NCBI GenBank assembly: GCA_045533955.1
Contig: JAZSIU010000011.1
Location: 20,555-84,554, forward strand
Length of the DNA: 64,000 nucleotides
Source of the DNA: Bacteroidaceae bacterium
GTDB lineage: Bacteria > Bacteroidota > Bacteroidia > Bacteroidales > Bacteroidaceae
Direction of reading: 5' to 3'
A model generated the notes under the pieces. That model made no database searches, had not been told where the DNA came from, and saw only the letters and a program-made list of their open reading frames with translations. Shown piece after piece: positions 23,928 through 35,867 of this stretch. The translations under genes and the position numbers were made by a program. Within the stretch, counting starts at the first letter, position 1. Each line of letters starts with the position of its first letter.

Positions 23928-24295
23928 TTACTTTTTAAAAGCCCTCTTTAGCAGCAGGCGTGCGGCGCAGATGCGGTTCTTGATGGTTGCCCAGTGGCAG
24001 GCCGAGCGCGAGCGTAATCTCGCAATATTTGTAGCTCCGGGCATACATTATCAGTGGGGTGGAAAAATCGGGTGGGAGCTTTGCGATAATGCGAGAAACA
24101 TCGTGAAATTCCGGCAGTACGTCGGCTGCGTCATCTGTGCTGTAATAATTATAATTGGTATTTTCTATTCTTACTCTTCACTCCGCAAAGAGAGACGTTC
24201 GTTAAGAAAGATATTTCGCATAATCCGCCGGGCCCAATGGTCGAATCTCGTTCCGATAGTAAAATATTTTCGCTTGATATAGGCCTTTGTTAGCC
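23928..24295 (-). pseudogene. decayed, N-terminally truncated sigma-70/ECF-type sigma factor gene
   Basis: The minus strand reads region-2-like FDHWARRIMRNIFLNER, then in-frame TAA (24171-24173) and TAG (24165-24167). Region-4-like LPPDFSTPLIMYARSYKYCEITLALGLPLG follows in another frame. A further frameshift precedes TIKNRICAARLLLKRAFKK-stop at 23928. Similarity stops at the island edge, about 24295. Confidence 0.6.
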
Positions 24296-24334
24296 ATAAT
24301 GTTAAAAACCCCTCTAGAATGGTCGGGAGGGTGT
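24296..24334. repeat. partial third copy of the 83-bp arm repeat (contains hairpin T1)
   Basis: ATAATGTTAAAAACCCCTCTAGAATGGTCGGGAGGGTGT aligns with the right half of 29382-29464 and 34408-34490. Confidence 0.7.
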
Positions 24335-24389
24335 GAAAATAAAGCAACCGCCTCAACATAATGAAACGTCGGAGCGGTTGTAAGTTGTT

Positions 24390-24726
24390 GACTATTTTCT
24401 GTTTGCCCTGCGGGCAACTCCCATTGAGTCAATCACTGTCGCATCGCGACCGTATCCCACGCTTTGCGTGACTATTACTCAGTGATTGCCTCTATCATTT
24501 TGCAAGCAAAATAATTGACTCATCACAATGTTGCCTTTAACTTTGTTGAAACGCTGCTGCACTCGTTGTAAAAACTCAAACAAGTTTAGTTTTAACTTGT
24601 TGGCAGGTGTTTTGGGCAATCGCACGTCGCGTGGCACTAGAACTCTCCCTCTGTTTATAGAGGGAGTACCCGAAGGGGGAGGGAGTATTTGTGCTACACG
24701 CGACTAACTGCTCAAAAGGTTGCTCA
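24390..24726 (-). other. structured non-coding module, copy I
   Basis: Shares TCCCATTGA (24419-24427), CAATCGC and the bulged helix GCGTGGCAC (24629-24637)/GTGCTACACGC (24691-24701) with copies II and III. Minus-strand terminator hairpins lie at its low-coordinate end. Confidence 0.4.
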
Positions 24727-24759
24727 GTAGTCGTAAAAAACAGCGTTTTTTACGACTAC
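24727..24759. repeat. att-core-like sequence in perfect-hairpin form
   Basis: GTAGTCGTAAAAAAC-AGC-GTTTTTTACGACTAC. The same left arm and loop region occur at 29749-29775. Confidence 0.6.
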
Positions 24760-24872
24760 TCGACTAGAATAGTTAAATTGGGGTTAAATATTTTAACTTT
24801 ATTATCAATGCTTTAACACTGAATTTTACCTTTTGAAACGGCAACTGGTGTCAAGAACAGGTGTCGAAAAAT
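24760..24872. repeat. AT-rich arm repeat, copy 1, with paired GGTGTC motifs
   Basis: TCGACTAGAATAGTTAAAT...TTTTAACTTTATTATCAATGCTTTAA aligns with 27849-27945 and 29784-29890. GGTGTC at 24847 and 24860. Confidence 0.75.
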
Positions 24873-24873
24873 T

Positions 24874-25944
24874 TTATATTATTGGTTCTATAGTGTATCC
24901 TTGTTCTTCTCCAAATTTAATTATTTTCCCTATATTGCCACTGCCAATTTCTCTTGTAAAAGCAAAAGTAATCCCATCAGCACTTACCATTAAGTTCTCT
25001 TTTTCTTCACGCCAACGCTTGTCTTTGGATTTATCAGTAGTAGTTTCTTTCCACTTTTGTATTTCAGAATACTTTTCAATACCAAATGGAATAGCATTTA
25101 CAATTTCATAATAAGTAAGTTGAGGGTTATTCCTTACAAACAATTGTACTATAGCTAACGCTAAATGCCCTTTGCCATAGTTCCCATTTCCATTTAGTCT
25201 ATATTGTGTGTAGTCCTTTGGCTTATTGTTACTTATTACAGGGGTTTGGGCTGGAGTGTATGTTTCTATATGTATTATGTTTGTGCAATTTTTACGTTTA
25301 ATGTTTATTTCTATTTCATTTGTGATATTCTCAATATCTTCAGCACAGTATCCCTCGCTTGTCAATTTTTGATTTAATAACTCAATAAATAATTGCTTAC
25401 CTTTTTCTGTTGTAAGTTCGTTGATAAACTCGTTAATCTCTTTTTGTTTTTCTTGTTTTGCGATTTGTTCAATGCAAAAATTAGTAAGCTGTTCGGCGTT
25501 GAAATTTTCTTGTTTGAAAAGTTCAATAAAGTTTTTACCATTATTAGAGTTTTCTACGAAGTCAATTTTCAATATACTTATAGGTTCTTTTCCAAACTCA
25601 TAATAGAACAATTCTATATGTTCTCCCATATATATACCAAATTGCACTGGTAGTAATTTCATATATGAGAAAAGTTGTACTATTTCCTCTTTATTTTGAA
25701 TGTGGTTAGGTTTTTTCATCTCAATAACGAACAATGGAGTATCGTCCTTGAAAAATACAATATCTGGATATACATAGTTTACTGTACTGCCGACTCTTAA
25801 TTGATATTGATTTTCTACACGCTCGCAGTGCCAACCTAATAAATAACGAAAGTGTGTATAGACAAGTTTTTGATATTCCTTTTCGGTTGCTTGCTTTGTT
25901 TTCTTATCTAATATGTCTTTACATATTGTGTTCCAAATATTCAT
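24874..25944 (-). CDS. PD-(D/E)xK nuclease-like protein (type I restriction HsdR N-terminal-like domain) with an uncharacterised C-terminal domain
   Basis: 356 aa. YPDIVFFKDDTPLFVIEMKK fits the D...E-x-K nuclease core. It occupies the cargo slot of decayed unit 1. Confidence 0.55.
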   Translation of the reverse strand: MNIWNTICKDILDKKTKQATEKEYQKLVYTHFRYLLGWHCERVENQYQLRVGSTVNYVYPDIVFFKDDTPLFVIEMKKPNHIQNKEEIVQLFSYMKLLPVQFGIYMGEHIELFYYEFGKEPISILKIDFVENSNNGKNFIELFKQENFNAEQLTNFCIEQIAKQEKQKEINEFINELTTEKGKQLFIELLNQKLTSEGYCAEDIENITNEIEINIKRKNCTNIIHIETYTPAQTPVISNNKPKDYTQYRLNGNGNYGKGHLALAIVQLFVRNNPQLTYYEIVNAIPFGIEKYSEIQKWKETTTDKSKDKRWREEKENLMVSADGITFAFTREIGSGNIGKIIKFGEEQGYTIEPII

Positions 25945-26067
25945 TGTGCTATGTTTTAATGCACAAAGTTATTTATTTATTTATATTCATTTAATCAAGT
26001 GATATTCATAAATACAGTTATTGCTCCCGACTTCGCCGGGAGCAATAACTAATAAACAAAATTCAAA

Positions 26068-26172
26068 TTAAATACAGAACTCTCTCTTTACTCTCTGCAC
26101 TGTACTAACGCTAACATTGGATAATTTTGCTGTGTTTCGTACAGAGTAACCACGCTTGAGCAGTGAGATTAA
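26068..26172 (-). pseudogene. 3' stub of a serine recombinase gene
   Basis: Encodes LISLLKRGYSVRNTAKLSNVSVSTVQRVKREFCI-stop. This is near identical to the C-terminus of the intact gene at 30761-31414. No upstream catalytic domain is present. Confidence 0.8.
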
Positions 26173-26217
26173 TAGTAAAAATGTTTAATTAAGTATGTCA
26201 ACAAAAAGTTTTTTTGC

Positions 26218-26225
26218 TATATTTG
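26218..26225 (+). promoter_or_regulatory. -7 promoter box TATATTTG upstream of the HipA-like operon
   Basis: TAnnTTTG match about 120 nt upstream of the ATG at 26345. Confidence 0.4.
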
Positions 26226-26344
26226 CGGTAAAATTGGGAATATAGTTTGCACTTGCATTGAAAAAATATTGAATGTTTTTTGATATTTCTCAGTTGTTAG
26301 TGTTATATATATGCTTCAATTATTATAATTCTACGTGTCAAAAT

Positions 26345-27136
26345 ATGCTCGATAGTATCAAGGATATTCAAAAACAATATGAAACAGGAGAAAACCCTGT
26401 TCTTGTAATGTGTAACGATAAGAATGAGTATGTGTGTAAGTATATGCGTTCTTTAAATCCTGCGTATAAGCTTGTGTGTGAATTCATTGGCTCTCATCTT
26501 GTTGAAAAATGGAATATCCGTTCTCCGAAAATGAATCTAGTGAAAATCAAGGCTGAGCATTGGAGTAATTTTTTATCGACAAATTGTATCCGTACTGCAC
26601 CAGCGTTGGGGTATATGATGCTGAATAGTGTTGTTGATATTACACAGACAACGTATAGTCATATACAACTGTCAAAGAAAGTTCTTGTACAATTGCTAAA
26701 GATTGCTCTTTTTGACTTTTGGGTAGCAAATGAAGACCGTACATATAATAATGCAAATTTGCTGTACGATGTAAAATGCGATGAACTTGTTTCTATTGAT
26801 TATGGCGGAATATTCAATACCTCGACATTTGAATACCCAATGTGTCAGTTGACAATGACAGATACGATATTGTATGCAGAAATATTCAAACAATTTATAA
26901 ATAAATTTTCAAAGAATGAAATTAGGACTGTTGCTGTAGGGTTGGAAGATTATTATAGAAAGTCGGTCGATAAGTGTAGAGGTGTGCTTGAAAGTATGAT
27001 TTCGGGAATACCATTAGAATGGAAAGTTGATAATGATATTATACTTAATAAACTGATGCAATTGTTTGATGAGTCGTGGGTGGCTGAAGTGTGGACAAAT
27101 TTTGTTGAATGCTTAAATGATAATATAAATGAATAA
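26345..27136 (+). CDS. HipA-like (HipA C-terminal fold) protein kinase
   Basis: The ATG at 26345 gives MLDSIKDIQ. The catalytic-loop-like WVANEDRTYNNANLLYD and metal-binding-like VSIDYGG resemble the HipA kinase core. Confidence 0.6.
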   Translation: MLDSIKDIQKQYETGENPVLVMCNDKNEYVCKYMRSLNPAYKLVCEFIGSHLVEKWNIRSPKMNLVKIKAEHWSNFLSTNCIRTAPALGYMMLNSVVDITQTTYSHIQLSKKVLVQLLKIALFDFWVANEDRTYNNANLLYDVKCDELVSIDYGGIFNTSTFEYPMCQLTMTDTILYAEIFKQFINKFSKNEIRTVAVGLEDYYRKSVDKCRGVLESMISGIPLEWKVDNDIILNKLMQLFDESWVAEVWTNFVECLNDNINE

Positions 27137-27476
27137 GTTACAATATAGCATAATTTTTGGTGAGATTAGACCTGAGATTTCTGAACGTTTAAGTCTTGGC
27201 GTCATTGTAGTAGATGGTGAAAATATTTCTGTCAAATACTCAAACAAGAAATTGCAGGTGTTAAAAAGTCTGTACTCTCAAAAAGAATATGAGTTTGTAG
27301 GGAGAGTTGTCAGAGGGTTGTCAAGAAACAATAAGATTCCTTCAGAAGGCATAGTTAATTATTTGTCAAGATACTCAAATAATTTGCTCTCAATATCAAA
27401 ATTACAGGGGATAGATTTGGAAGCAAATGAAAAGAGTAAACAATGGTTGTATGATACATATGTAAAGGTGGGTTAA
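27129..27476 (+). CDS. DUF3037-like small protein, translationally coupled to the kinase
   Basis: 115 aa with an 8-nt overlap with the kinase stop. The N-terminus (YSIIFGEIRPEISERLSLGVIVVDG) resembles DUF3037 as I recall it. There is no HTH. Confidence 0.45.
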   Translation: MNKLQYSIIFGEIRPEISERLSLGVIVVDGENISVKYSNKKLQVLKSLYSQKEYEFVGRVVRGLSRNNKIPSEGIVNYLSRYSNNLLSISKLQGIDLEANEKSKQWLYDTYVKVG

Positions 27477-27494
27477 AAACAACCCTTTGGAAAT

Positions 27495-27531
27495 AAAACA
27501 ATAAAGAAGCCGTAGGCTTCTTTATTGTTTT
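27495..27531. terminator. bidirectional hairpin terminator
   Basis: AAAACAATAAAGAAGCC-GTA-GGCTTCTTTATTGTTTT. Confidence 0.75.
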
Positions 27532-27540
27532 ATAGTTATC

Positions 27541-27799
27541 ATACTTGCGGGGTAGCGGACTAAGGTAAATACCCGAAGGGGAGGTGGCTTTATGCTACGT
27601 GCGACTATTACTCATTGAAGCCCTTGGTGGAAGTAATAAACAACAAGAGCCGAAAGGCTCTTGTTGTAGAATATTGTCATTGTCCCCTTTGAGGCCATCC
27701 CATTGAGACCATTGTTTTTGTCTTTGACAATCGCCACCCACGCGGTGCCACCTTACGGCACTTCGCGTGACCTATGGCTCTGCGATTAGCTCGGAAGGA
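27541..27799 (-). other. structured non-coding module, copy III
   Basis: TCCCATTGA at 27698-27706. Hairpin TTGTC/GACAA at 27718-27730. Bulged helix CGCGGTGCC (27741-27749)/GGCACTTCGCG (27757-27767). Confidence 0.4.
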
Positions 27800-27829
27800 G
27801 TAATAAAAAAATGGAACCTTGTGGTTCCA

Positions 27830-27848
27830 TTTTTTATTACTCCCACTC
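27830..27848. repeat. degenerate att-core copy
   Basis: TTTTTTATTACTCCCACTC is preceded by its own hairpin (27800-27840) and followed by the AT-rich arm. Confidence 0.6.
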
Positions 27849-27945
27849 GACTAGATATATTAAATTTTGAATAAATCTTTTAACTTTATTATCAATACTT
27901 TAATATTGCCATTTGCTCTAAGATGAGTTAAATGGTGTCGAAAGA
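27849..27945. repeat. AT-rich arm repeat, copy 2
   Basis: GACTAGATATATTAAATTTTGAATAAATCTTTTAACTTTATTATCAATACTTTAA. A single GGTGTC at 27934. Confidence 0.75.
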
Positions 27946-29232
27946 TTATTCTTGCTTTTCTATCTCTATGTTTTTGAATTTACCAAAAACGGGGTGATGT
28001 CGGTATTCCCAACGTGTTCCAGATGGTACATACAGAGTACATTCTTCAAAATTAACACTTTCATCTTTACCTAAGGCATAATTATCAATTTGAATATTGC
28101 CTAATTGTGTCCAATGTAGATGTATGCTTTTCAGTGCCGAGCAACCCTGAAAAGCTCTGTATCCAATTGCTGTTACGCTATTTGGAATGTTAATGTTTTG
28201 TAATGATGAACACCACCAAAAAGCTGATTCTCCTATTGTTGTTACACTGTTCGGAATTTCAATGCTTTTCAGTGCCGAGCAGAACTTAAAAGCGGAATCT
28301 CCTATTGTTGTTACACTGTTTGGGATGTCAATGCTTTGCAGTGCTGAGCAATTATAAAACGCTTCACTTCCTATTGTTGTAACACTATTAGGAATATCAA
28401 TGCTTTGCAGTGCTTCACAACCGCCAAAAGCACTGTATCCTATTGTTATTACGCTATTAGGTATATCAATGCTTTGCAGTGCCATACACTCCCAAAAAGC
28501 ACTATTTCCTATTGTTGTTACACTGTTTGGAATGTTAATGCTTTGTAGTGATGAACAACCATAAAAAGCACTATCTTCTATTGTTGTTACGCTGTTTGGG
28601 ATGTCAATGCTTTGTAGTGATGAGCAACCATAAAAAGCGTGGTTTCCTATTGTTGTTACACTGTTTGGGATGTCGATGCTTTGTAGTGATGAGCAACCCC
28701 AAAAAGCACCATTTCCTATTGTTGTTACGCTATTTGGGATGTCAATGCTTTGCAGTGCTGAGCAACCACCAAAAGCACTATTTCCTATTGTTGTTACACT
28801 GTTTGGAATCTGAATACTTTGCAGTGCCGAGCAACCCCCAAAAGCGTATTCTCCAATTGTTGTTACGCTGTTTGGGATGTCAATGCTTTGCAGTGCCGAG
28901 CAACTCCAAAAAGCACTGTATCCTATTGTTGTTACGCTGTTTGGAATCTGAATACTTTGCAGTGCCGAGCAACTCCAAAAAGCACTGTATCCTATTGTTG
29001 TTACACTATTAGGAATCTCAATGCTTTGCAATTGCCAGCAACTATTAAAAGCATTTTTTCCTATTGTTGTTACGCTGTTAGGTATATCAATACTTTTCAA
29101 TTGCCAGCAACTATTAAAAGCATCGTGTCTAATAGTTGTTACCCCCTTAGGTATTGTAATATGAGTAATGGGTTGATTGTTAACGCTTATTACAGCTTTT
29201 TTGTCTTCACTTAATATAAGAATATTATCCAT
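27946..29232 (-). CDS. BspA-type leucine-rich-repeat protein without a signal peptide
   Basis: About 14 tandem 23-aa repeats ([24 protein letters not shown]). The ATG at 29232 lies 25 nt downstream of a -7 box. The N-terminus [12 protein letters not shown] is not a signal peptide. Confidence 0.8.
28146..29166. repeat. 69-bp periodic coding repeats inside the LRR gene
   Basis: Many units share long identical nucleotide runs (e.g. CCTATTGTTGTTACACTGTTTGG...AATGCTTTGCAGTGC). Confidence 0.85.
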
Positions 29233-29256
29233 TGCTATACTATAAATTGCTTTTTG

Positions 29257-29264
29257 CAAATATA
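29257..29264 (-). promoter_or_regulatory. -7 promoter box TATATTTG for the LRR gene
   Basis: TAnnTTTG on the minus strand, 25 nt upstream of the ATG at 29232. Confidence 0.45.
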
Positions 29265-29321
29265 GTTTTTTAATTTTAAGAATAGATTATAGTTGTAAAT
29301 AACATATATAAAAAATCTAAA

Positions 29322-29384
29322 TTAAATACAAAACTCTCTTTTCACTCTTTGAACTGTGCTAACGCTAACATTGGATAATTTTGC
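29322..29384 (-). pseudogene. second 3' stub of a serine recombinase gene
   Basis: Encodes AKLSNVSVSTVQRVKREFCI-stop and is fused directly to the 83-bp arm repeat. Confidence 0.75.
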
Positions 29385-29464
29385 TACTGGTGTCAAAAAG
29401 TGGTATAAATTCATATTCGTTAACTGTAATGTTAAAATACCCTCCAGAATGGTCTGGAGGGTGT
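29382..29464. repeat. 83-bp arm repeat, left copy (paired GGTGTC plus hairpin T1)
   Basis: Aligns with 34408-34490 with 5 mismatches. The last 38 bp are identical. Confidence 0.85.
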
Positions 29465-29519
29465 GAAAATAAAGCAACCGCCTCAACATAATGAAATGTT
29501 GAAGCGGTTGTAAGTTGTT

Positions 29520-29748
29520 TATTATTAGAGTTTTTTATTGACAAGGCTCGTTATTCGCAACCCGCACGGCGTGATTTATATCCACGCTTCGTGCGACCTT
29601 TTGCTACTCGCCTTGTCGATAATTTTTGCCTTTTTTGAGGCAAAAATTATTCCCATTGACCAACCTTTTGTTGCCTTTGGCAATCGCACCCCGCGTGGCA
29701 CTATCTTCGTCAGTGCTACACGCGACTAACTGCTCAAAAGGTTGCTCT
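29520..29748 (-). other. structured non-coding module, copy II
   Basis: Bulged helices GCACGGCGTG (29564-29573)/CACGCTTCGTGC (29583-29594) and GCGTGGCAC (29693-29701)/GTGCTACACGC (29713-29723). TCCCATTGA at 29651-29659. Hairpin TTGCC/GGCAA at 29671-29683. Confidence 0.4.
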
Positions 29749-29755
29749 GTAGTCG

Positions 29756-29783
29756 TAAAAAACGCTGTTTTTTACTCCCACTC
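29756..29783. repeat. att-type direct repeat, distal copy
   Basis: TAAAAAACGCTGTTTTTTACTCCCACTC, identical to 34544-34571. Confidence 0.85.
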
Positions 29784-29890
29784 GACTAGATATGTTAAAT
29801 TTTGATTGAATGTTTTAACTTTATTATCAATACTTTAACTTTTGTTTTTGCCTTTTGGAACTGCAACTGGTGTCAAAAACTGGTGTCGAA
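29784..29890. repeat. AT-rich arm repeat, copy 3, with paired GGTGTC motifs
   Basis: GACTAGATATGTTAAATTTTGATTGAATGTTTTAACTTTATTATCAATACTTTAA. GGTGTC at 29869 and 29882. Confidence 0.75.
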
Positions 29891-29904
29891 AGTCTTGTGA
29901 AAAA

Positions 29905-30654
29905 TTATGGTACTACGATAAAATTTAAAAGACTGTATTCAAGTGAAAGCATTGATGCAGATGTTGTTGAAATGATGTCGCCGTCTTGGAAACGCTTATT
30001 TACGTCTACACAAATAAATAAACCACCTTCTGGTAATTCAATAACGTCTAAAACTTTGCTTTTATGTATTATTGCTTGGTTTAAACTTTCTAAACTTTTA
30101 TCCTTAATCTCTATTTCTTTGATATTTTTAAAATCTATAATATCATTGAAATATATAGAGATTTCTTCTAAAAAGCGCTTTTGAATTTCTTTCGATTTAA
30201 AGTCAACAGCAGATGCAATAAATTCATCATAATCTGCGCCATAGTATATAGGACCTGTCATTAAAGCATTAATACTTTCTTCATTAATGCTTATTCTTGC
30301 CCAATCAGAATTATACTTGCGAGTTATATTATCAAGCTTTATTGCTTTTTCCAATATGTAATGTGTATCTTTGGCTAATGAAATGTTTTCAGGACATAAT
30401 TCTATAATAAGTTTCTCAAAACTTAATACTGTTTGTTCTTCTTTTTCATAGCGATATTTTAATGCCTTTGCTTTTGCTATTGCAGTTATTGTTTCTAGTC
30501 TTTCTTCAAATAAATAGTGATTAGGTCGAGAAGTGGCTCCCCATTGCGCTGTTATTTCACTGTTTACCTTAATTCCTGAATATTGAAAGATTGGATAATT
30601 TTTTCTAAGGTTCTTTAGCATTTCACTAAATAGTCTATTTGCATTAGTATCCAC
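29905..30654 (-). CDS. hypothetical protein in the cargo slot of the intact element
   Basis: 249-aa ORF with a GTG start at 30654; an ATG alternative gives MLKNLRK 11 codons in. No recognisable motif. Very AT-rich. Confidence 0.5.
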   Translation of the reverse strand: MDTNANRLFSEMLKNLRKNYPIFQYSGIKVNSEITAQWGATSRPNHYLFEERLETITAIAKAKALKYRYEKEEQTVLSFEKLIIELCPENISLAKDTHYILEKAIKLDNITRKYNSDWARISINEESINALMTGPIYYGADYDEFIASAVDFKSKEIQKRFLEEISIYFNDIIDFKNIKEIEIKDKSLESLNQAIIHKSKVLDVIELPEGGLFICVDVNKRFQDGDIISTTSASMLSLEYSLLNFIVVP

Positions 30655-30760
30655 CGAAATATATTGTATATAAATTATAAATTACAAATTTACTCTAATT
30701 TTAGGTTTTAAACAAGTGTTTTCAATGGAAATTGATAGAGGTTTATATATGAAATTCAAA

Positions 30761-31414
30761 TTACAAACAAAATTCTCTTTTCACTCTTTGAACAGTGCTA
30801 ACACTAACATTGGATAGTTTCGCTGTGTTTCGTACAGAGTAACCTCGTTTGAGCTGTGAAATAACCTCTTTGTATTCCTCTTTCTTGCGCTCTGTGGTCT
30901 TACAGGAACCTTTCTTGCGCCCTAACTTGCCACCATTGGCAATATAACTATTTCTGCCCGAATTGAGTCTGTAAACGATGTTAGAACGTTCGATATTCGC
31001 CATTTCGGCAAGAACTGTTACCATTATGCTGGCGATTGGGTTCGCCTCTCCTGTGGCGTTCAGGGTGTAAATGCCAAGGTTTTGGATATATACTGAAACA
31101 CCCGCCTCGTGCAACATTTCGAGCGATTTTAACACTTGCAAGGTGGAACGACCTAAACGACTCAACTCCGACAGTAGAATATAGTTGACCTTGTTTGCTA
31201 TACAGTAGTTAATGCACTCCATTAGAACTGTTCTGTTCTCGTTCTTGGTTGCTCCGCTTATGTGTTCTTCGTAAGTGCCAATGATATTAAAGTCGTTGCT
31301 GTTGGCAAAGCGTGTCAAGTCCTCAATCTGTCTTTGTGTATTCTGTCTGTCGTTAGTAGATGAAACTCTGGCGTAAATAACTGCTGTACTCATATTGCTA
31401 TCTCTTTGGTTCAC
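30761..31414 (-). CDS. serine recombinase (resolvase/invertase type)
   Basis: 217 aa. The catalytic-Ser motif is AVIYARVSS. It has a resolvase core and a C-terminal HTH (GYSVRNTAKLSNVSVSTVQRV). Confidence 0.9.
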   Translation of the reverse strand: MNQRDSNMSTAVIYARVSSTNDRQNTQRQIEDLTRFANSNDFNIIGTYEEHISGATKNENRTVLMECINYCIANKVNYILLSELSRLGRSTLQVLKSLEMLHEAGVSVYIQNLGIYTLNATGEANPIASIMVTVLAEMANIERSNIVYRLNSGRNSYIANGGKLGRKKGSCKTTERKKEEYKEVISQLKRGYSVRNTAKLSNVSVSTVQRVKREFCL

Positions 31415-31478
31415 TGGCTAAGGTACCAGGAAAGTCCTGCTCCTGCAAGCTCCAGAGTCAAAAATATCAAAGAATATT

Positions 31479-31548
31479 TTGAATATATAAAAACATGTTT
31501 TTTTTGATTGAATACAGATTTTTTTGAATACAATTAAATATTGAATAC
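31479..31548. repeat. iteron-like direct repeats TTGAATA(C/T) x4
   Basis: Copies at 31479, 31508, 31524 and 31541, in the spacer between the rep-like stop and the recombinase start. Confidence 0.6.
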
Positions 31549-31735
31549 GGTATAAAGAGGATATATATAAGATTGGATTTATTTTCAACTATTTACGAAA
31601 AATATGTTTTTTTCTTCATTACCACCCTTGTAAGAAAATGTAAGATTTTATATTACAATAAGCGGTTTTATTATCAATATGTTATGTCTATATATATGTA
31701 ATGGCAAGGTAGTTTACTAATACCTTGCCACGCAA

Positions 31736-32623
31736 TTACAACAGTTCTAAAATGCTGTAACTCTTTCTGCCGTTCTTGTCTTGGAAACGCAAAACTCTGT
31801 CGAGGAATGTTATAAAGAAAAACAAAAGAGAGTCCTTGTCTAAAAATATCTTTGGGCTGTATGTTATCTGCTCTCTTGTGAAAAAGTCTTTGAGAACATC
31901 GCTGTTTATTCGTACCTCTAACCTATAAAGTTTCTTGGGGTTGTCGTTGTTGTCGAGAATGTATTGTTTGTGGCTCTTGCTCTCAATTTCTCGTTTCTTG
32001 TTGTAAGCGTTGAGAGTGATGTTTTTGTTCTTCTGTGCCACTAATACGCTATACTCCTTAATTCTATAGAGGTTGCCAACTCCTATATAAAGAATGTCCT
32101 CAATCAGTTGTTTGCGGTCTGTGATTTTAGTGCCGTTCACTATTGGAGTGTACTCCTTGTTTCGTATCAGTTGGATAAGTTTCTTGGGATAATTGCAACT
32201 GCCGTCAATGGCGATGTCCCAATGAGTGAAATTGTTGAACACAAGTCCTAATGTATCTTCGATGTACTCAAGGTGCAACAATCTGCTATGTTGCCAATCG
32301 TGTTTTAGGTAGAATTGCTTGTTCTCTACTTGCAACCAAACAAACGACTGCATAGCCTCATCGGTGTCTGCTTTCAACCCCCATTGTAGCGTGCCGAAGA
32401 CTTGCTCTGTGAACTCTTGGAAAGTGTTGTCTTCGTAGTCAAGATAGACTATTTCATAAATGTAGTTATAGTGAGTGCCTTGCACTTGCCTTAATCTGTA
32501 CCCCCATTCGGGGTGTTCAAATTCTTCTGTTGGGTTATCTCTTAATGTGTTTAGATAACTGTTCTCTGCCAATGTGTAGCAGATTTTCAACTTGTCGATA
32601 GTTGGTGTAAATTCATTTTTCAT
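31736..32623 (-). CDS. Rep_trans-like rolling-circle replication initiator
   Basis: 295 aa. HWDIAIDG and LNAYNKKREIE...LYRLEVRIN resemble the conserved D-x-A-x-D and Y-x-K...R-x-E motifs of the Rep_trans (pT181 RepC / phage replication protein) family. Confidence 0.55.
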   Translation of the reverse strand: MKNEFTPTIDKLKICYTLAENSYLNTLRDNPTEEFEHPEWGYRLRQVQGTHYNYIYEIVYLDYEDNTFQEFTEQVFGTLQWGLKADTDEAMQSFVWLQVENKQFYLKHDWQHSRLLHLEYIEDTLGLVFNNFTHWDIAIDGSCNYPKKLIQLIRNKEYTPIVNGTKITDRKQLIEDILYIGVGNLYRIKEYSVLVAQKNKNITLNAYNKKREIESKSHKQYILDNNDNPKKLYRLEVRINSDVLKDFFTREQITYSPKIFLDKDSLLFFFITFLDRVLRFQDKNGRKSYSILELL

Positions 32624-32814
32624 TCCTTTTTTAAATTATTACTCTTATTAGTTCTCTCTTGCCATACAGTTCTCATCGCCTCTGCTATGGCTTGTTTGTG
32701 CTGTGGGGTTTTGCGATACCTTTTCATCGCTTGGCTAATTCTCTTGCGTGTAACAGCACTCTTTTTTCTTCCACGCAGTGTCAATGAAATTTTGTGTTTT
32801 GTCTGTTCATTCAT
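32620..32814 (-). CDS. small basic DNA-binding protein with NUMOD3-like motifs (candidate excisionase / recombination directionality factor)
   Basis: 64 aa. TKHKISLTLRGRKKS and TRKRISQAMKRY resemble NUMOD3 repeats. There is a 4-nt overlap with the rep-like start. Confidence 0.5.
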   Translation of the reverse strand: MNEQTKHKISLTLRGRKKSAVTRKRISQAMKRYRKTPQHKQAIAEAMRTVWQERTNKSNNLKKE

Positions 32815-32941
32815 AGTGCTATCCTTTTTACTATAAATAGTAAGTAGGTTGAAAAAATGTAGATTTTTTTCTGAAAAATTTTACAGACAGAACTGTTATA
32901 TAGTAGATAGGCTCTTATAACAGTTCCCTCAAAGGGGTTAC

Positions 32942-34270
32942 CTATCTTGCAAACGCTTGGGCTACTATCCTTGCGTGTTCCTCTTTGTTTACCTTGATAT
33001 ATTTGAGAAAATTATTCTCTGTGGTGTGTCCCGTGATTGCCATAATACTAATGCTTGGAACTCCTTTGAGATACATATTTGTGGCAAATGAGCGTCTTGC
33101 AGTATGGTTCATAACAAACTCAAACTTTGCTCCGTCCTTGATGATTGTGTTTCCACCTTTTACACGGGATAGGGTAGTCCTTTCGTTGATGTTGGCAAGT
33201 TTAGCACACAGACGGATATGTTTCAAGCAATGTGTCTTGTCCACGCTTTTGGGGAAACTCTCTCCGTATTTCGTGAATATCTCTTTAACCATTGGGTGCA
33301 TAGGAATAACAACAGTTGCGTTTGTCTTGTGAGTGTGAACAACCATAGTATCGTTGCTCCTTATCTCAACATTAGATAGGTCTTGCCAATCTCCAAAGCG
33401 TAGTCCAGTCCAACAAGCAACAATGAACAAGTCCCGTGTTTCTTCAATTCTTGCTTTATCGCCAACAACTGCTTTTACGGCCTCATCTTCAAAATTGATA
33501 GCATACAATCGTTTAATCTCTTCCTCTGTTAGATAGATGTTATCTACATCTTGGCACTTGGTAGTGTAAGAGTGATAGCATTTGTTTATCTCAATGCCGT
33601 TCAGTTCTGCCTCTTTCAACCATACTTTGATAATGCTGAATGTGCTTGCTATCGTGTTTGCAGCGTATTCTCGTTCTAATAACCAAGCAGTAAAACGTTC
33701 TTCAAGGCGATTGTCAAACAGTTGCCAAGTGAGTGCAAGGCGATTGTCGTTGCAGAACTCTTGTAAGCGTTTCAAGGCATTGTAATGGTTGTAGATTGTA
33801 CCGCTGACTATCTTGCGTTGTGTTGTTCTGTTTACCATTTGCTTTTTGCGCTCAATGTAGTCTTGTATGAATGTCAAAGGTTTCTTCTTGATGTCTGTGT
33901 CCTTGCCATTGATTTTGCATTTGAAGTAGTTTTCAAAGTTCTCTTTCGTGTGTTCAATCTCGCCCTCTGTAATTGCTTTTGCATAGTCGTTGCAGTAAGA
34001 TAGTATCTGTTTCAGTGCTTTGTTTACCTCTTTATTATAGCGTAACTGAACTGCTCCAATGGCAGGGTCTTCTGTTGCTCTTTCGCCAACTTGGGTTCTT
34101 GTGGTCTTTAACCAATACTGCGGTTCTATTGTCAGTTTGGTAAATACTCTTGCTCGTTCTTTGTTGATTGTTGTTGTCAACCAAATTTGAGATTTGTTGC
34201 CTACTGTTTTGAGATTGAAATTGACTCTCATAGTAAATTTGTGGTTTATATAAAATTCGTTTTCTACCAT
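32942..34270 (-). CDS. tyrosine site-specific integrase
   Basis: 442 aa (alternative ATG at 34231). Catalytic residue contexts are WTGLRFGD, HTARRSFAT and GHTTENNFLKY. The N-terminal arm-binding/SAM-like region is typical of Bacteroidetes integrases. Confidence 0.9.
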   Translation of the reverse strand: MVENEFYINHKFTMRVNFNLKTVGNKSQIWLTTTINKERARVFTKLTIEPQYWLKTTRTQVGERATEDPAIGAVQLRYNKEVNKALKQILSYCNDYAKAITEGEIEHTKENFENYFKCKINGKDTDIKKKPLTFIQDYIERKKQMVNRTTQRKIVSGTIYNHYNALKRLQEFCNDNRLALTWQLFDNRLEERFTAWLLEREYAANTIASTFSIIKVWLKEAELNGIEINKCYHSYTTKCQDVDNIYLTEEEIKRLYAINFEDEAVKAVVGDKARIEETRDLFIVACWTGLRFGDWQDLSNVEIRSNDTMVVHTHKTNATVVIPMHPMVKEIFTKYGESFPKSVDKTHCLKHIRLCAKLANINERTTLSRVKGGNTIIKDGAKFEFVMNHTARRSFATNMYLKGVPSISIMAITGHTTENNFLKYIKVNKEEHARIVAQAFAR

Positions 34271-34407
34271 ATTAAAAATACTTTTTTGACTTATTATTTT
34301 CTAAAGTATATGTTTGGTCTATAGAAAAGTCAAGGGGTAAAAGCATTTTTTTTCGATTTTTTTTTCAAAGGTACCAGGAAAATCTCATCTGCTCAAATGG
34401 TGGCAAC

Positions 34408-34490
34408 TGCTACTGGTGTCAAAAAGTGGTGTCAATTTACATTCGTTAACTATAATGTTAAAATACCCTCCAGAATGGTCTGGAGGGTGT
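34408..34490. repeat. 83-bp arm repeat, right copy (paired GGTGTC at 34415 and 34428 plus hairpin T1)
   Basis: Aligns with 29382-29464. Confidence 0.85.
34458..34487 (-). terminator. minus-strand hairpin terminator T1
   Basis: CCCTCCAGA/TCTGGAGGG stem, followed on the minus strand by TATTTT. Confidence 0.6.
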
Positions 34491-34494
34491 ATAT

Positions 34495-34533
34495 CAATAA
34501 AATAGCCTCAACTTTTTTGTTGTTGAGGCTATT
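34495..34533 (-). terminator. minus-strand hairpin terminator T2' downstream of the guaA-like gene
   Basis: AATAGCCTCAAC/GTTGAGGCTATT stem. Confidence 0.6.
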
Positions 34534-34543
34534 GAAATATGCT

Positions 34544-34571
34544 TAAAAAACGCTGTTTTTTACTCCCACTC
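34544..34571. repeat. att-type direct repeat overlapping the stop codon and last three codons of the guaA-like gene
   Basis: Identical to 29756-29783. TTACTCCCACTC is the reverse complement of GAG TGG GAG TAA. Confidence 0.85.
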
Positions 34572-35867
34572 AATTGTGGCGCTGGGCTTAGGCGACATAT
34601 CGTAGCAGACGCGGTTGACGGTCTTTACCTCGGCAAGGATGCGGTCGGTGATTTTCATAAGGATTGCCCAATCTATCTGCTCTATTGTGGCTGTCATTGC
34701 ATCTACCGTGTTGACGGCGCGGATAATTACGGGCCAGTCGTACGAGCGGGCATTGTCGCGCACGCCCACTGACTTAAAATCGGGAACTATGGTAAAGTAT
34801 TGCCATACTTTTTTGTCGAGGCCGGCTTTTGCAAACTCTTCGCGCAGGATGGCGTCCGACTCGCGCACTGCTTCTAAGCGGTCGCGGGTAATTGCGCCGA
34901 GGCAGCGTACGCCGAGGCCGGGGCCGGGGAAGGGCTGACGATAGACCATCTCGTAGGGGAGGCCAAGCTCGAGGCCGCAGGCGCGTACCTCGTCTTTAAA
35001 GAGCTGACGGATGGGCTCGACAAGTTCGAATTGCATATCTTCGGGCAGGCCGCCTACGTTGTGGTGCGATTTTACCATTTTGGCTGTCTTTGTACCGCTC
35101 TCGACAATGTCGGGGTAGATGGTGCCCTGACCGAGGAATTCTATTCCGTCGAGCTTGCGTGCCTCCTCTTCGAATACGCGGATAAACTCGCCACCGATTA
35201 TCTTGCGTTTCTGCTCGGGGTCAGCGACGCCCTCGAGCTTGCCGAGGAAGCGGTCGGTTGCATCGACATATACTAGGTTGGCGCACAGCTGGTTGCGGAA
35301 CACCTCGATAACGGCTTCCGACTCGCCCTTGCGCATCAGTCCGTGGTTCACGTGTACGCATACAAGGTTGTTGCCGATGGCCTTGAGCAGAAGGGCTGCA
35401 ACCACCGAGCTATCGACACCGCCCGAGAGTGCTAGAAGCACTTTGCGGTTGCCAACCTGACGACGGATGAGTTCTACCTGGTCGTTGACAAAGTTTGTCA
35501 TATTCCAATTGGCCTCGGCTCCGCAGGTGTCGAATACAAATGATTTTACGGCCTCTTTTATGGCCTCTTCGTCATTTGTAAACTGCGCGAGTTTGACGTC
35601 GCACAGTGCCTTGTCGTGGCCTGCTGCCATAATGGGCAGGCCGGCATCATAAATCTCGGGGTTTACGTCAATGGCAACGCCGTCAATTACGTTATTGGGG
35701 CCGCCGTTGATGATGATACCTTTTACTCCGGGAAGCGCTTTTAACTCCTGTGCTGTAATGTCGTGGGGGTAAATCTCGCTATATACTCCCAATGCACGAA
35801 TTGCGCGGGCAAGCACGGTGTTCTCGTGGCTGCCAAGGTCGAGGATGACAATCATATCCTGTTTCAT
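34560..35867 (-). CDS. guaA: GMP synthase-like protein (ATP pyrophosphatase and dimerisation domains intact; short, apparently degenerate N-terminal amidotransferase domain)
   Basis: 435 aa with the P-loop SGGVDSSV, KSHHNVGGLP, and the C-terminal ...IEWE typical of GuaA. The N-terminal ~115 aa lack the G-x-C-x-G nucleophile context (GLPIMAAGHD instead). Confidence 0.8.
   Translation of the reverse strand: MKQDMIVILDLGSHENTVLARAIRALGVYSEIYPHDITAQELKALPGVKGIIINGGPNNVIDGVAIDVNPEIYDAGLPIMAAGHDKALCDVKLAQFTNDEEAIKEAVKSFVFDTCGAEANWNMTNFVNDQVELIRRQVGNRKVLLALSGGVDSSVVAALLLKAIGNNLVCVHVNHGLMRKGESEAVIEVFRNQLCANLVYVDATDRFLGKLEGVADPEQKRKIIGGEFIRVFEEEARKLDGIEFLGQGTIYPDIVESGTKTAKMVKSHHNVGGLPEDMQFELVEPIRQLFKDEVRACGLELGLPYEMVYRQPFPGPGLGVRCLGAITRDRLEAVRESDAILREEFAKAGLDKKVWQYFTIVPDFKSVGVRDNARSYDWPVIIRAVNTVDAMTATIEQIDWAILMKITDRILAEVKTVNRVCYDMSPKPSATIEWE

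Follow-up and report, generated by a model that had tools for sequence, protein, structure and literature searches.

The window analysed here, a 64-kb stretch of the genome of a Bacteroidaceae bacterium (contig JAZSIU010000011.1), carries an island of approximately 10.3 kb (~24286-34559) at the end of guaA', a gene for a paralogue of GMP synthase; the island comprises an intact element at 29784-34559 together with three or more remnants, none of which retains an integrase or Rep gene. It most probably arose through repeated site-specific integration of 4.5-5-kb Bacteroidales elements into the last codons of guaA'. The elements constitute a new family of a kind already known, integrative, accreting in tandem and probably mobilisable: they are specific for the end of guaA or guaA', sites free of them are found, their arrays vary, and the remnants derive from relatives that are intact elsewhere. 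Related loci and contigs fetched for comparison are referred to by L-numbers.

A first-pass annotation of the window had proposed integration with restoration of the reading frame, followed by tandem accretion, and both proposals are supported by the comparisons below. It had also described the island as AT-rich, and the G+C content is indeed 0.27-0.42 within the island versus 0.44-0.56 in the flanks. Searches for tRNA genes and Rfam matches found none.

Integration at the end of guaA'

The target gene, the attachment (att) sites and the arms of the intact element are as follows.

34560-35867, minus strand: target gene guaA', encoding a 435-aa GMP-synthase paralogue with a partly missing glutamine amidotransferase (GATase) domain
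34544-34571, no strand assigned: attR, the right 28-bp copy; the family core GAGTGGGAGTAA (minus strand) is 34560-34571
29756-29783, no strand assigned: attL of the intact element, the left 28-bp copy; core 29772-29783
34271-34559, minus strand: P arm of the intact element, with hairpins, an arm-type site and the 83-bp repeat
29784-29904, minus strand: P' arm of the intact element, with an arm-type site at 29866-29887 and a ATATTGATAATAAA-like box at 29820-29837

The intact element is bounded by an exact 28-bp repeat, TAAAAAACGCTGTTTTTTACTCCCACTC, which occurs exactly twice in the window (29756-29783 and 34544-34571); none was expected by chance in 100 shuffles, and no additional copy was present in the window at up to three mismatches. 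The attR copy contains the codons E-W-E and the stop of the guaA' reading frame, as previously noted; the final codons and stop of guaA' constitute the att core. The GMP-synthase assignment of guaA' is based on an NCBIfam score of 547 bits and a match to Pfam GMP_synt_C; only positions 1-75 of 188 of the N-terminal model were matched, about 100 GATase residues being absent.

Across the family the core comprises only the terminal codons and the stop, TCGA(A/G)TGGGA(A/G)TAA. Window cores are in direct orientation at 34560, 29772, 27837 and, in mutated form, 24750, flanked by a P' arm and, on the opposite side, by a P arm, and core motifs have no occurrence elsewhere in the 64-kb window. Comparisons across the family were made with this short core pattern; queries with a palindromic 17-mer and a 35-nt att sequence mostly missed, because only the terminal codons are common to the whole family. 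In L004, L019 and L026, attR and attL differ just 5' of TGGGAATAA (at GA(A/G)) and right after TAA; because the core copies differ on both sides, strand exchange appears to be confined to TGGGARTAA, the last two codons plus the stop. The crossover, which the first-pass annotation had considered impossible to fix from one sequence, can in this way be narrowed by comparison.

A module of integrase, small protein, Rep, resolvase and cargo follows the stop codon of guaA or of the 435-aa guaA' in 25 related loci, which represent several families of Bacteroidales; wherever both ends lay inside the fetched DNA, the module was bounded by 15-16-bp direct repeats of the terminal codons, the family core being found once where the gene ends and a second time 4.5-7.9 kb further downstream. 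The module order was present in contigs encoding near as well as remote homologues and in 17 of 40 species-representative genome loci (Bacteroidaceae, Rikenellaceae/Alistipes, Parabacteroides and others). Element-free sites are also common: among 80 metagenome contigs carrying guaA', 52 of the 54 assessable loci had no downstream integrase or Rep. Many of these 52 have a full-length guaA-like gene directly upstream, and in the rest none was detected. Because 52 of the 54 loci lack integrase and Rep, and often read mscL-guaA-guaA', guaA' is regarded as a host gene and the element-free site as the norm in those species.

The family has moved recently between species. One variant, whose Rep protein (P0021) is identical throughout, was found in four or more host contexts. 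Among its copies in three host species and L005, from a fourth, the backbone is 99.2-99.9% identical; the fourth host has a second copy, L006, which shares 96-97% identity with each of the others, L005 among them. In these hosts the guaA genes next to the element are only 78-84% identical, and the flanks upstream bear no relation to one another. A similar disparity is seen between the window element and L014, in which the P arm (99.3%) and int (95.3%) are more alike than the host genes guaA' (84.8%), mscL (78.2%) and gap (88.7%). The window element is a mosaic, its rep-res spacer being closest to that of L010 (97.8%).

The guaA' protein is approximately 90% identical across Bacteroidales families, and in many human-gut contigs its gene lies directly 3' of full-length guaA (mscL-guaA-guaA'); in this window mscL is followed directly by guaA', and no full guaA is present. 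The idea that guaA' is itself mobile, which its conservation across families and its position beside guaA in L019 and L020 had suggested, was rejected on the strength of the 52 loci without an element. In L082, L090, L111, L124 and L129, a hairpin resembling that of the P arm (...ATAGCCTCAAT...ATTGAGGCTAT) follows the TAG stop of guaA', with no integrase or Rep; these hairpins may be element remnants kept as gene terminators.

The arms on either side of the core are conserved in their organisation. Every P arm starts with a terminator-like hairpin; in the intact element this hairpin is at 34502-34532, followed by a second at 34465-34488 and by two GACACC motifs at 34412-34433. Two copies of GACACCAGT form an arm-type site in both arms of every tyrosine-integrase member, at a distance from the core of ~140 bp on the integrase side and ~100 bp on the cargo side; in the window such pairs occur at 34412-34433, 29866-29887 and 24844-24865 and nowhere else. 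The 83-bp repeat (29382-29464 and 34408-34490; 94% identical), its partial third copy (~24286-24334) and the AT-rich arms (24746-24852, 27833-27939 and 29768-29874; 72-81% alike) were found where the first-pass annotation had placed them, as were two stubs of the resolvase gene considered below.

Genes and sites of the intact element

All genes of the intact element are on the minus strand, in the order tyrosine integrase (int), NUMOD3-like small protein, 295-aa protein (rep), serine resolvase (res) and cargo; two non-coding sites lie between rep and res.

32942-34270, minus strand: tyrosine integrase, 442 aa; Pfam Phage_integrase and Phage_int_SAM_5 above threshold
32620-32814, minus strand: 64-aa basic protein with two to three NUMOD3-like repeats; 4-nt overlap with the start of rep
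31736-32623, minus strand: 295-aa Rep_trans-fold protein, a candidate rolling-circle initiator and/or relaxase
31702-31730, minus strand: conserved hairpin, 5 nt after the rep stop; stems 31721-31730 and 31702-31711
31459-31548, minus strand: four (G/A)TATTCAA iterons (GTATTCAA) and a TAnnTTTG box, upstream of res
30761-31414, minus strand: small serine recombinase of the resolvase/invertase type, 217 aa; Pfam Resolvase (E 5e-30) and HTH_7
29905-30654, minus strand: cargo open reading frame, 249 aa; function not assigned, no family matches

The 295-aa protein had been called Rep_trans-like, a label that stands by fold and motif and falls short at the Pfam threshold. It had no match in Pfam, PHROG, NCBIfam or PADLOC, and a profile search of PDB sequences returned nothing. 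A first search yielded 180 homologues, none of which has a name or a Pfam domain; they come from Bacteroides, Phocaeicola, Alistipes and other Bacteroidales. When 1.8 billion representatives were searched with a profile, 431 related clusters at 50% identity were obtained, and the family is present in gut metagenomes of humans and ruminants. An AlphaFold model built on 34 homologues had a predicted local distance difference test score (pLDDT) of 86.5, and its top six Foldseek matches in the PDB were RepSTK1 (4CIJ) and RepDE (4CWC/4CWE), with E-values of 5e-8 to 1e-5, followed by TATA-binding protein folds, which are expected for the Rep_trans fold class, a two-lobed crescent. Within the 34 sequences, Y207-N-K209-K-R-E212 is invariant, with Y207 at the end of strand 202-208; D10, D140 and E236 are likewise invariant, and their spacing is like that of D72, D177 and E280 of RelSt3. 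The active site of Rep_trans/MobT proteins comprises a catalytic tyrosine in motif III (Y-x-K-x-x-E) and three distant cation-binding acidic residues (PMC6499999), a description which, at the level of sequence, fits Y207-x-K-x-x-E and, as candidate cation ligands, D10, D140 and E236. When distant members of the family were scanned, 2 of 10 reached Rep_trans with E-values of 4e-6 and 3e-4, the better at 27.0 bits versus a cut-off of 29.6. The protein opens with strand 8-18 and has no additional N-terminal domain such as the helix-turn-helix (HTH) of MobT relaxases. Relatives of the Rep-like protein were found in none of 72,556 PLSDB plasmid records, 50,697 INPHARED phage records or 2.9 million IMG/VR viral contigs. 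By predicted fold and motif, and not by Pfam, the protein is best seen as a divergent branch of the Rep_trans superfamily.

Immediately beyond rep, the conserved hairpin combines a 10-bp stem, including three covarying pairs, with a loop, TTAGTAAAC (31712-31720), that is invariant in all clades; 86.9% of cells were paired, versus 25-48% with slid partners, and the DNA fold has a predicted energy of -9.8 kcal/mol (z = -4.2). The hairpin 13-mer occurs once in the window. These features make the hairpin a candidate nick site, either a double-strand origin or an origin of transfer (oriT). The iteron region upstream of res, conserved across family members, may serve as a res site; alternatively, it may combine an operator with a promoter.

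The integrase, the product of the single integrase gene in the window, scored above the cut-offs for PF00589 (38.7 bits; cut-off 27.1) and SAM_5 (38.8; cut-off 22.3), matched the PHROG_1 integrase with E 2e-21, and remained under the cut-off for Arm-DNA-bind_5 (16.9 bits; 22.6). By inspection, the motifs GLRFGD (289), HTARR (389), GHTT (414) and LKYI (422) appear to supply the conserved catalytic residues of tyrosine recombinases (R, H-x-x-R, H/W, Y). The 64-aa protein reached only E 0.13 against NUMOD3 (PF07460) and E 4e-4 against PHROG_314; 8 of 10 homologues match PF07460, the best of them at a weak E 1.4e-4, and a small NUMOD3-like gene lies upstream of rep in every clade. These matches hint, weakly, at a NUMOD3-like protein, as had been suggested. 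The resolvase scored over both cut-offs (Resolvase 104.9 bits, HTH_7 26.4 bits), with a YARVSS motif at residue 14. For the 249-aa cargo there were only 14 homologues and an unreliable AlphaFold model (pLDDT 54); a 99% identical copy of its gene is present in a different unit of L130. Neither capsid, terminase, primase or packaging matches (Pfam and PHROG scans) nor an FtsK/SpoIIIE-like Tra domain (Pfam, PHROG and NCBIfam scans) were found in the intact element.

The backbone occurs in other combinations. In a second clade (L027-L049, e.g. L028 9811-16694), the small protein, a Rep of ~50% identity, the hairpin and the small resolvase are kept, a large serine recombinase, encoded next to the small resolvase, replaces the tyrosine integrase, and the element is not beside guaA; the L067 variant has a more divergent Rep of 315 aa with a YDKYKE motif. 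Because the second clade and the L067 variant combine them differently, the replication and integration modules appear to be exchangeable.

Further sequence motifs recur between the non-coding sites. The ATATTGATAATAAA-like box lies just after the rep hairpin (31666-31680) and in every P' arm (24798-24815, 27885-27902 and 29820-29837), and it is conserved in relatives. The int leader (~34375-34390) and the res leader (~31425-31438) have a common motif, TTTCCTGGTACCTT; in relatives, paired CCAGT...CCAGT motifs are found at both leaders and may represent a common operator.

The remnant array

Reading away from guaA', the intact element is followed by the core at 29772-29783, a ~110-bp remnant, a degenerate core at 29647-29659 and further units, the features of which are listed in that order.

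29382-29771, minus strand: remnant att region, a ~110-bp segment, the degenerate core TCAATGGGAATAA (29647-29659) and a long-type P arm
29322-29384, minus strand: resolvase 3' stub, the last 20 codons, fused straight to the P arm
27946-29259, minus strand: unit 2 cargo, a BspA-type leucine-rich-repeat protein (Pfam LRR_5 E 1.6e-127)
27837-27945, minus strand: core and P' arm of unit 2; perfect core 27837-27848, arm 27849-27945, arm-type site decayed
27534-27836, minus strand: P-arm remnant of unit 3, beginning with a terminator-like hairpin at 27813-27828
26273-27533, plus strand: HipA_2-type block; kinase 26273-27136, 115-aa partner 27129-27476, terminator hairpin 27493-27533
26068-26172, minus strand: resolvase 3' stub of unit 3, the last 34 codons
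24874-25944, minus strand: unit 3 cargo, 356 aa, with an HSDR_N-like N-terminus and a PDC-S57-like C-terminus
24750-24873, minus strand: mutated core and P' arm of unit 3; core TTACGACTACTC at 24750-24761, arm-type site at 24844-24865
24286-24749, minus strand: outermost composite remnant, with P-arm fragments and the partial 83-bp repeat; left edge of the island

Tandem accretion is indicated by the direct cores, by the P' and P arms beside them, and by the match of the remnants to intact elements in L011 and L010. The segment 24758-26169 is 89.6% identical, over 1.4 kb, to the res-3'/cargo/P'-arm end of the intact element of L011, in which a 90% identical homologue of the 356-aa cargo gene lies directly 3' of an intact res; the outermost remnant is 89% identical to L011 4497-4732. 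The long-type P arm, which has at its end the 83-bp repeat and an arm-type site that is mutated in part, belongs to a segment (29382-29657) sharing 84.6% identity with the P arm of the intact L010 element, and the remnant att region is 85.5% identical to a remnant in L014. The P-arm remnant of unit 3 gave partial matches to the distal array ends in L010, L011, L014 and L015. Both resolvase stubs translate to ...AKLSNVSVSTVQRVKREFCI*, as does the C-terminus of the intact resolvase. Of two cores that the first-pass annotation had called degenerate, the leftmost is mutated as claimed, the core at 27837-27848 is perfect, and the degenerate core at 29647-29659 is an addition.

The array is not one fixed arrangement common to all relatives, a possibility that is countered by L130 and by the element-free sites, the latter known from other species. 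L010, L014, L015 and L016 contain comparable yet different arrays with resolvase stubs. L130, a contig of 3.9 kb obtained from a different sample, matches two parts of the window at 98% identity and joins them differently: a HipA unit and resolvase stub are followed by the 249-aa cargo, the switch falling within the res 3' segment. The HipA_2 block, which in unit 3 occupies the place of int-rep on the opposite strand (kinase: Pfam HipA_2 E 2e-20, PADLOC PDC-M66A E 8e-10), has a 97.8% identical copy beside a different cargo in L130. Because L130 joins these parts differently, the array is not fixed, and cargo moves between units via conserved flanks.

The cargo slot is often occupied by defence- or toxin-like genes, such as the PDC-S57-like/HSDR_N gene (24874-25944), the HipA_2 PDC-M66A-like gene with its 115-aa partner (26273-27476), a Mrr_cat nuclease (L028 11790-13571) and a GNAT acetyltransferase (L004 11887-12489). 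In the BspA-type gene there are 14 tandem units of 69 bp, with 60-79% identity to a reference copy.

The outermost core reads TTACGACTACTC rather than TTACTCCCACTC and lies in a perfect palindrome (24726-24760) of 16+3+16 nt, with an inverted centre, AGC instead of GCT; it looks like an att core erased by snap-back or template-switch repair. In several remnants the deletion of int-rep starts 3-6 nt after an arm-type GACACCAGT (window 29382-29390, L010 ~6225, L014 ~13178, L016 ~12955) and ends in res at approximately codon 136 or 196. An enzyme-catalysed deletion with a common endpoint after GACACCAGT was considered and dropped: two independent events agree, and a third differs. An insert of 70-85 bp (...GCTCGGCAAAGCAAGTAAACTT..TTTGC..CTCGCTTAATCG...) is present at the same position in two resolvase stubs and in a long P arm (L130 2170-2240 and 3760-3830; L016 14640-14720), and may be a small repeat resembling a miniature inverted-repeat transposable element.

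Mechanism, alternatives and known systems

We propose that the integrase binds the arm-type sites on both arms and exchanges strands within TGGGARTAA; integration would rebuild the gene end, and the P arm would supply its terminator. The excised circle would carry the attP junction P' arm-TCGAGTGGGAGTAA-P arm, i.e. ...CTAGTCGAGTGGGAGTAAAAAACAGCGTTTTTTAAGCAT..., and the healed chromosomal site would read ...ATTGAGTGGGAGTAAAAAACAGCGTTTTTTACGACTAC.... After excision, the Rep_trans-fold protein would nick the hairpin beside its gene and initiate rolling-circle replication, and the same nick may start conjugative transfer through the mating pore of a helper. The NUMOD3-like small protein, translationally coupled to rep, would assist as a DNA-binding accessory, and the small serine recombinase would resolve multimers at the iteron region upstream of res. 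A newcomer would integrate at the gene-proximal att site and push older copies outward, and the latter would decay by internal deletion, while recombination in the conserved 3' segment of res would reshuffle the cargo. In the window, the older copies are without int, rep, the gene for the small protein and the greater part of res, and they retain the res 3' stub, the cargo, the P' arm and part of the P arm.

The role of the Rep_trans-fold protein is where another account comes closest. The element carries its own integration module between att repeats and no mating-pore genes, as an integrative and mobilisable element (IME) does, and its Rep_trans-fold protein could be mainly a MobT-like relaxase that nicks a hairpin oriT and uses a co-resident conjugative transposon, with replication secondary; this account, which overlaps our own and differs from it only in the main role of that protein, is a serious contender to which we give a little less than even weight. 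Rep_trans proteins of Firmicutes IMEs are proven relaxases by experiment, some of them without an HTH (PMC7563843, PMC5704250); near-identical copies in species with guaA genes 78-84% identical need an efficient interspecies route, and no relatives were found on plasmids or phages. Against this, MobT relaxases have so far been reported from Firmicutes elements only (PMC7563843), the 295-aa protein is without the N-terminal HTH of the relaxases of integrative and conjugative elements, no coupling protein or accessory transfer gene was found in Pfam and PHROG scans of the element, and no helper element was identified. The earlier statement that no relaxase is present calls for a reservation: because Rep_trans proteins act as relaxases in Firmicutes IMEs, the 295-aa protein is itself a candidate relaxase.

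Other accounts concern the array or the vehicle. Segmental duplication and divergence of one insertion by unequal homologous recombination could explain why a composite block of P' arm, core, ~100 bp and P-arm fragment occurs twice (24286-24870 and 29416-29891; 85-88% identical), and L130 shows that homologous recombination reshuffles units; yet the units bear unrelated cargo genes, their best matches differ (the unit with the 356-aa cargo to L011, the long P arm to L010), the P arms are of two types and relatives bear different arrays, which renders this account improbable. A phage satellite or hitch-hiker packaged in virions or vesicles would suit the small size of 4.5-5 kb, the lack of transfer genes of its own and the defence-like cargo (PDC-S57-like, HipA_2/PDC-M66A-like, and Mrr_cat in L028), but no relative was found in the 2.9 million IMG/VR contigs or the 50,697 phage records and no capsid, terminase, primase or packaging-related matches were obtained, and we consider it very improbable. 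Practically no weight is given to the view, raised by the first-pass annotation as an alternative, that the repeats are generic intergenic sequences and the cluster fixed and immobile: within the 64-kb window the repeats are confined to the island, element-free sites are common, 99% identical elements occur in diverged hosts, and arrays vary between close relatives.

Repeated integration by an element that excises and replicates remains our preferred explanation, and several observations weigh against it. Neither a circular form nor an excision junction nor a raised copy number was observed, and two short contigs checked as possible circular forms were broken integrated copies. No excisionase was identified. 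The Foldseek TM-scores of the 295-aa model were moderate (0.40-0.49), and its family misses the gathering threshold of Pfam Rep_trans (PF02486), with E ~0.04 in 2 of 34 members; matches to Phage_CRI and Rep_trans alike were sub-threshold at E ~0.04. Nicking of the hairpin and the roles given to the resolvase and the small protein are steps that we infer. The empty site for this exact host was deduced from other species only, as exact-protein look-ups of guaA', Rep, mscL, PP2C, gap and P0272 gave no match and hence no same-species genome for comparison.

The first-pass annotation had likened the element to pSAM2. Elements of the pSAM2 type combine an integrase with a rolling-circle-type initiator and replicate after excision, and the functional analogy stands; the pSAM2 Rep, however, appears to belong to a family other than that of the protein described here, which has a Rep_trans fold, and the present element differs further in having no FtsK-like Tra, in targeting a protein gene rather than a tRNA gene and in its phylum. 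Firmicutes IMEs with Rep_trans proteins appear, by analogy, to be the closer precedent. IME_Sga2069_rpmE, IMESag-rpsI and IME_oriT carry a tyrosine integrase and a Rep_trans protein and reside at the 3' ends of housekeeping genes (PMC5704250, PMC7563843); like the present element they are small, with a tyrosine integrase at a conserved-gene 3' end, Rep_trans as the sole replication or transfer candidate, cargo or toxin-antitoxin genes, and no mating-pore genes. In contrast to them, the family described here is from another phylum, its Rep-like protein is too divergent for PF02486, a NUMOD3-like protein and small resolvase are not reported there, and its mobilisation is putative. As summarised in PMC5704250 (citing Pavlovic 2004 and Bellanger 2011), ICESt1/ICESt3 and cis-mobilisable elements accrete in tandem at the 3' end of fda in Streptococcus thermophilus; there too, in that account, an intact element is accompanied by att-flanked remnants without recombination genes in which cargo is kept, whereas ICESt1/ICESt3 are large and conjugative and the element here is 4.5-5 kb and non-conjugative.

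Within Bacteroidales, NBU1, NBU2, Tn4555, Tn4399 and Tn5520 are tyrosine-integrase elements moved by conjugative transposons (PMC5704250); they use canonical MobP-type relaxases and tRNA or loosely defined sites, are mostly 5-12 kb, and for none of them has a Rep_trans-like protein or a location at guaA been reported. Genomic islands at the 3' end of guaA are described elsewhere (GIsul2, ATE-1 and the Brucella IncP island; hotspot survey of Song et al. 2012); they have the same 3'-end target and tyrosine integrases, and differ in phylum and in their unrelated genes, and in that a truncated guaA' is used here besides guaA. RepD/RepC of the pT181 family and RepSTK1 are like the 295-aa protein in fold, in Y-x-K-x-x-E and three acidic residues, in size (~270-300 aa without extra domains) and in a hairpin with a conserved loop beside the gene; they differ in that identity is 10-16%, that the present family is sub-threshold in Pfam, and that it is found on an integrated element. 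No description of the family in Bacteroidales was found in the literature searched, coverage of which was incomplete, in line with the first-pass annotation, which knew of no report of this combination of genes in the order.

Tentatively, and with more doubt than confidence, we suggest that one nickase serves as both replicase and relaxase of a minimal 4.5-kb integrative replicon, that this would be the first Rep_trans/MobT-type family in Bacteroidota, spread by hijacked conjugative transposons, and that it has a single swappable, often defence-like cargo slot exchanged via the res 3' segment and the P' arm. Horizontal gene transfer has one of its main arenas in gut Bacteroidales, whose known mobilisable elements all use canonical relaxases. 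The family described here is common and escapes current annotation, its key protein being 'hypothetical' and without a Pfam domain, and its recognition would improve the calling of mobile elements in gut genomes. Its compact integrase/att system, possibly with a replicon, may be of use in Bacteroides genetics, and guaA and guaA' emerge as a hotspot for variable, partly defence-like cargo.

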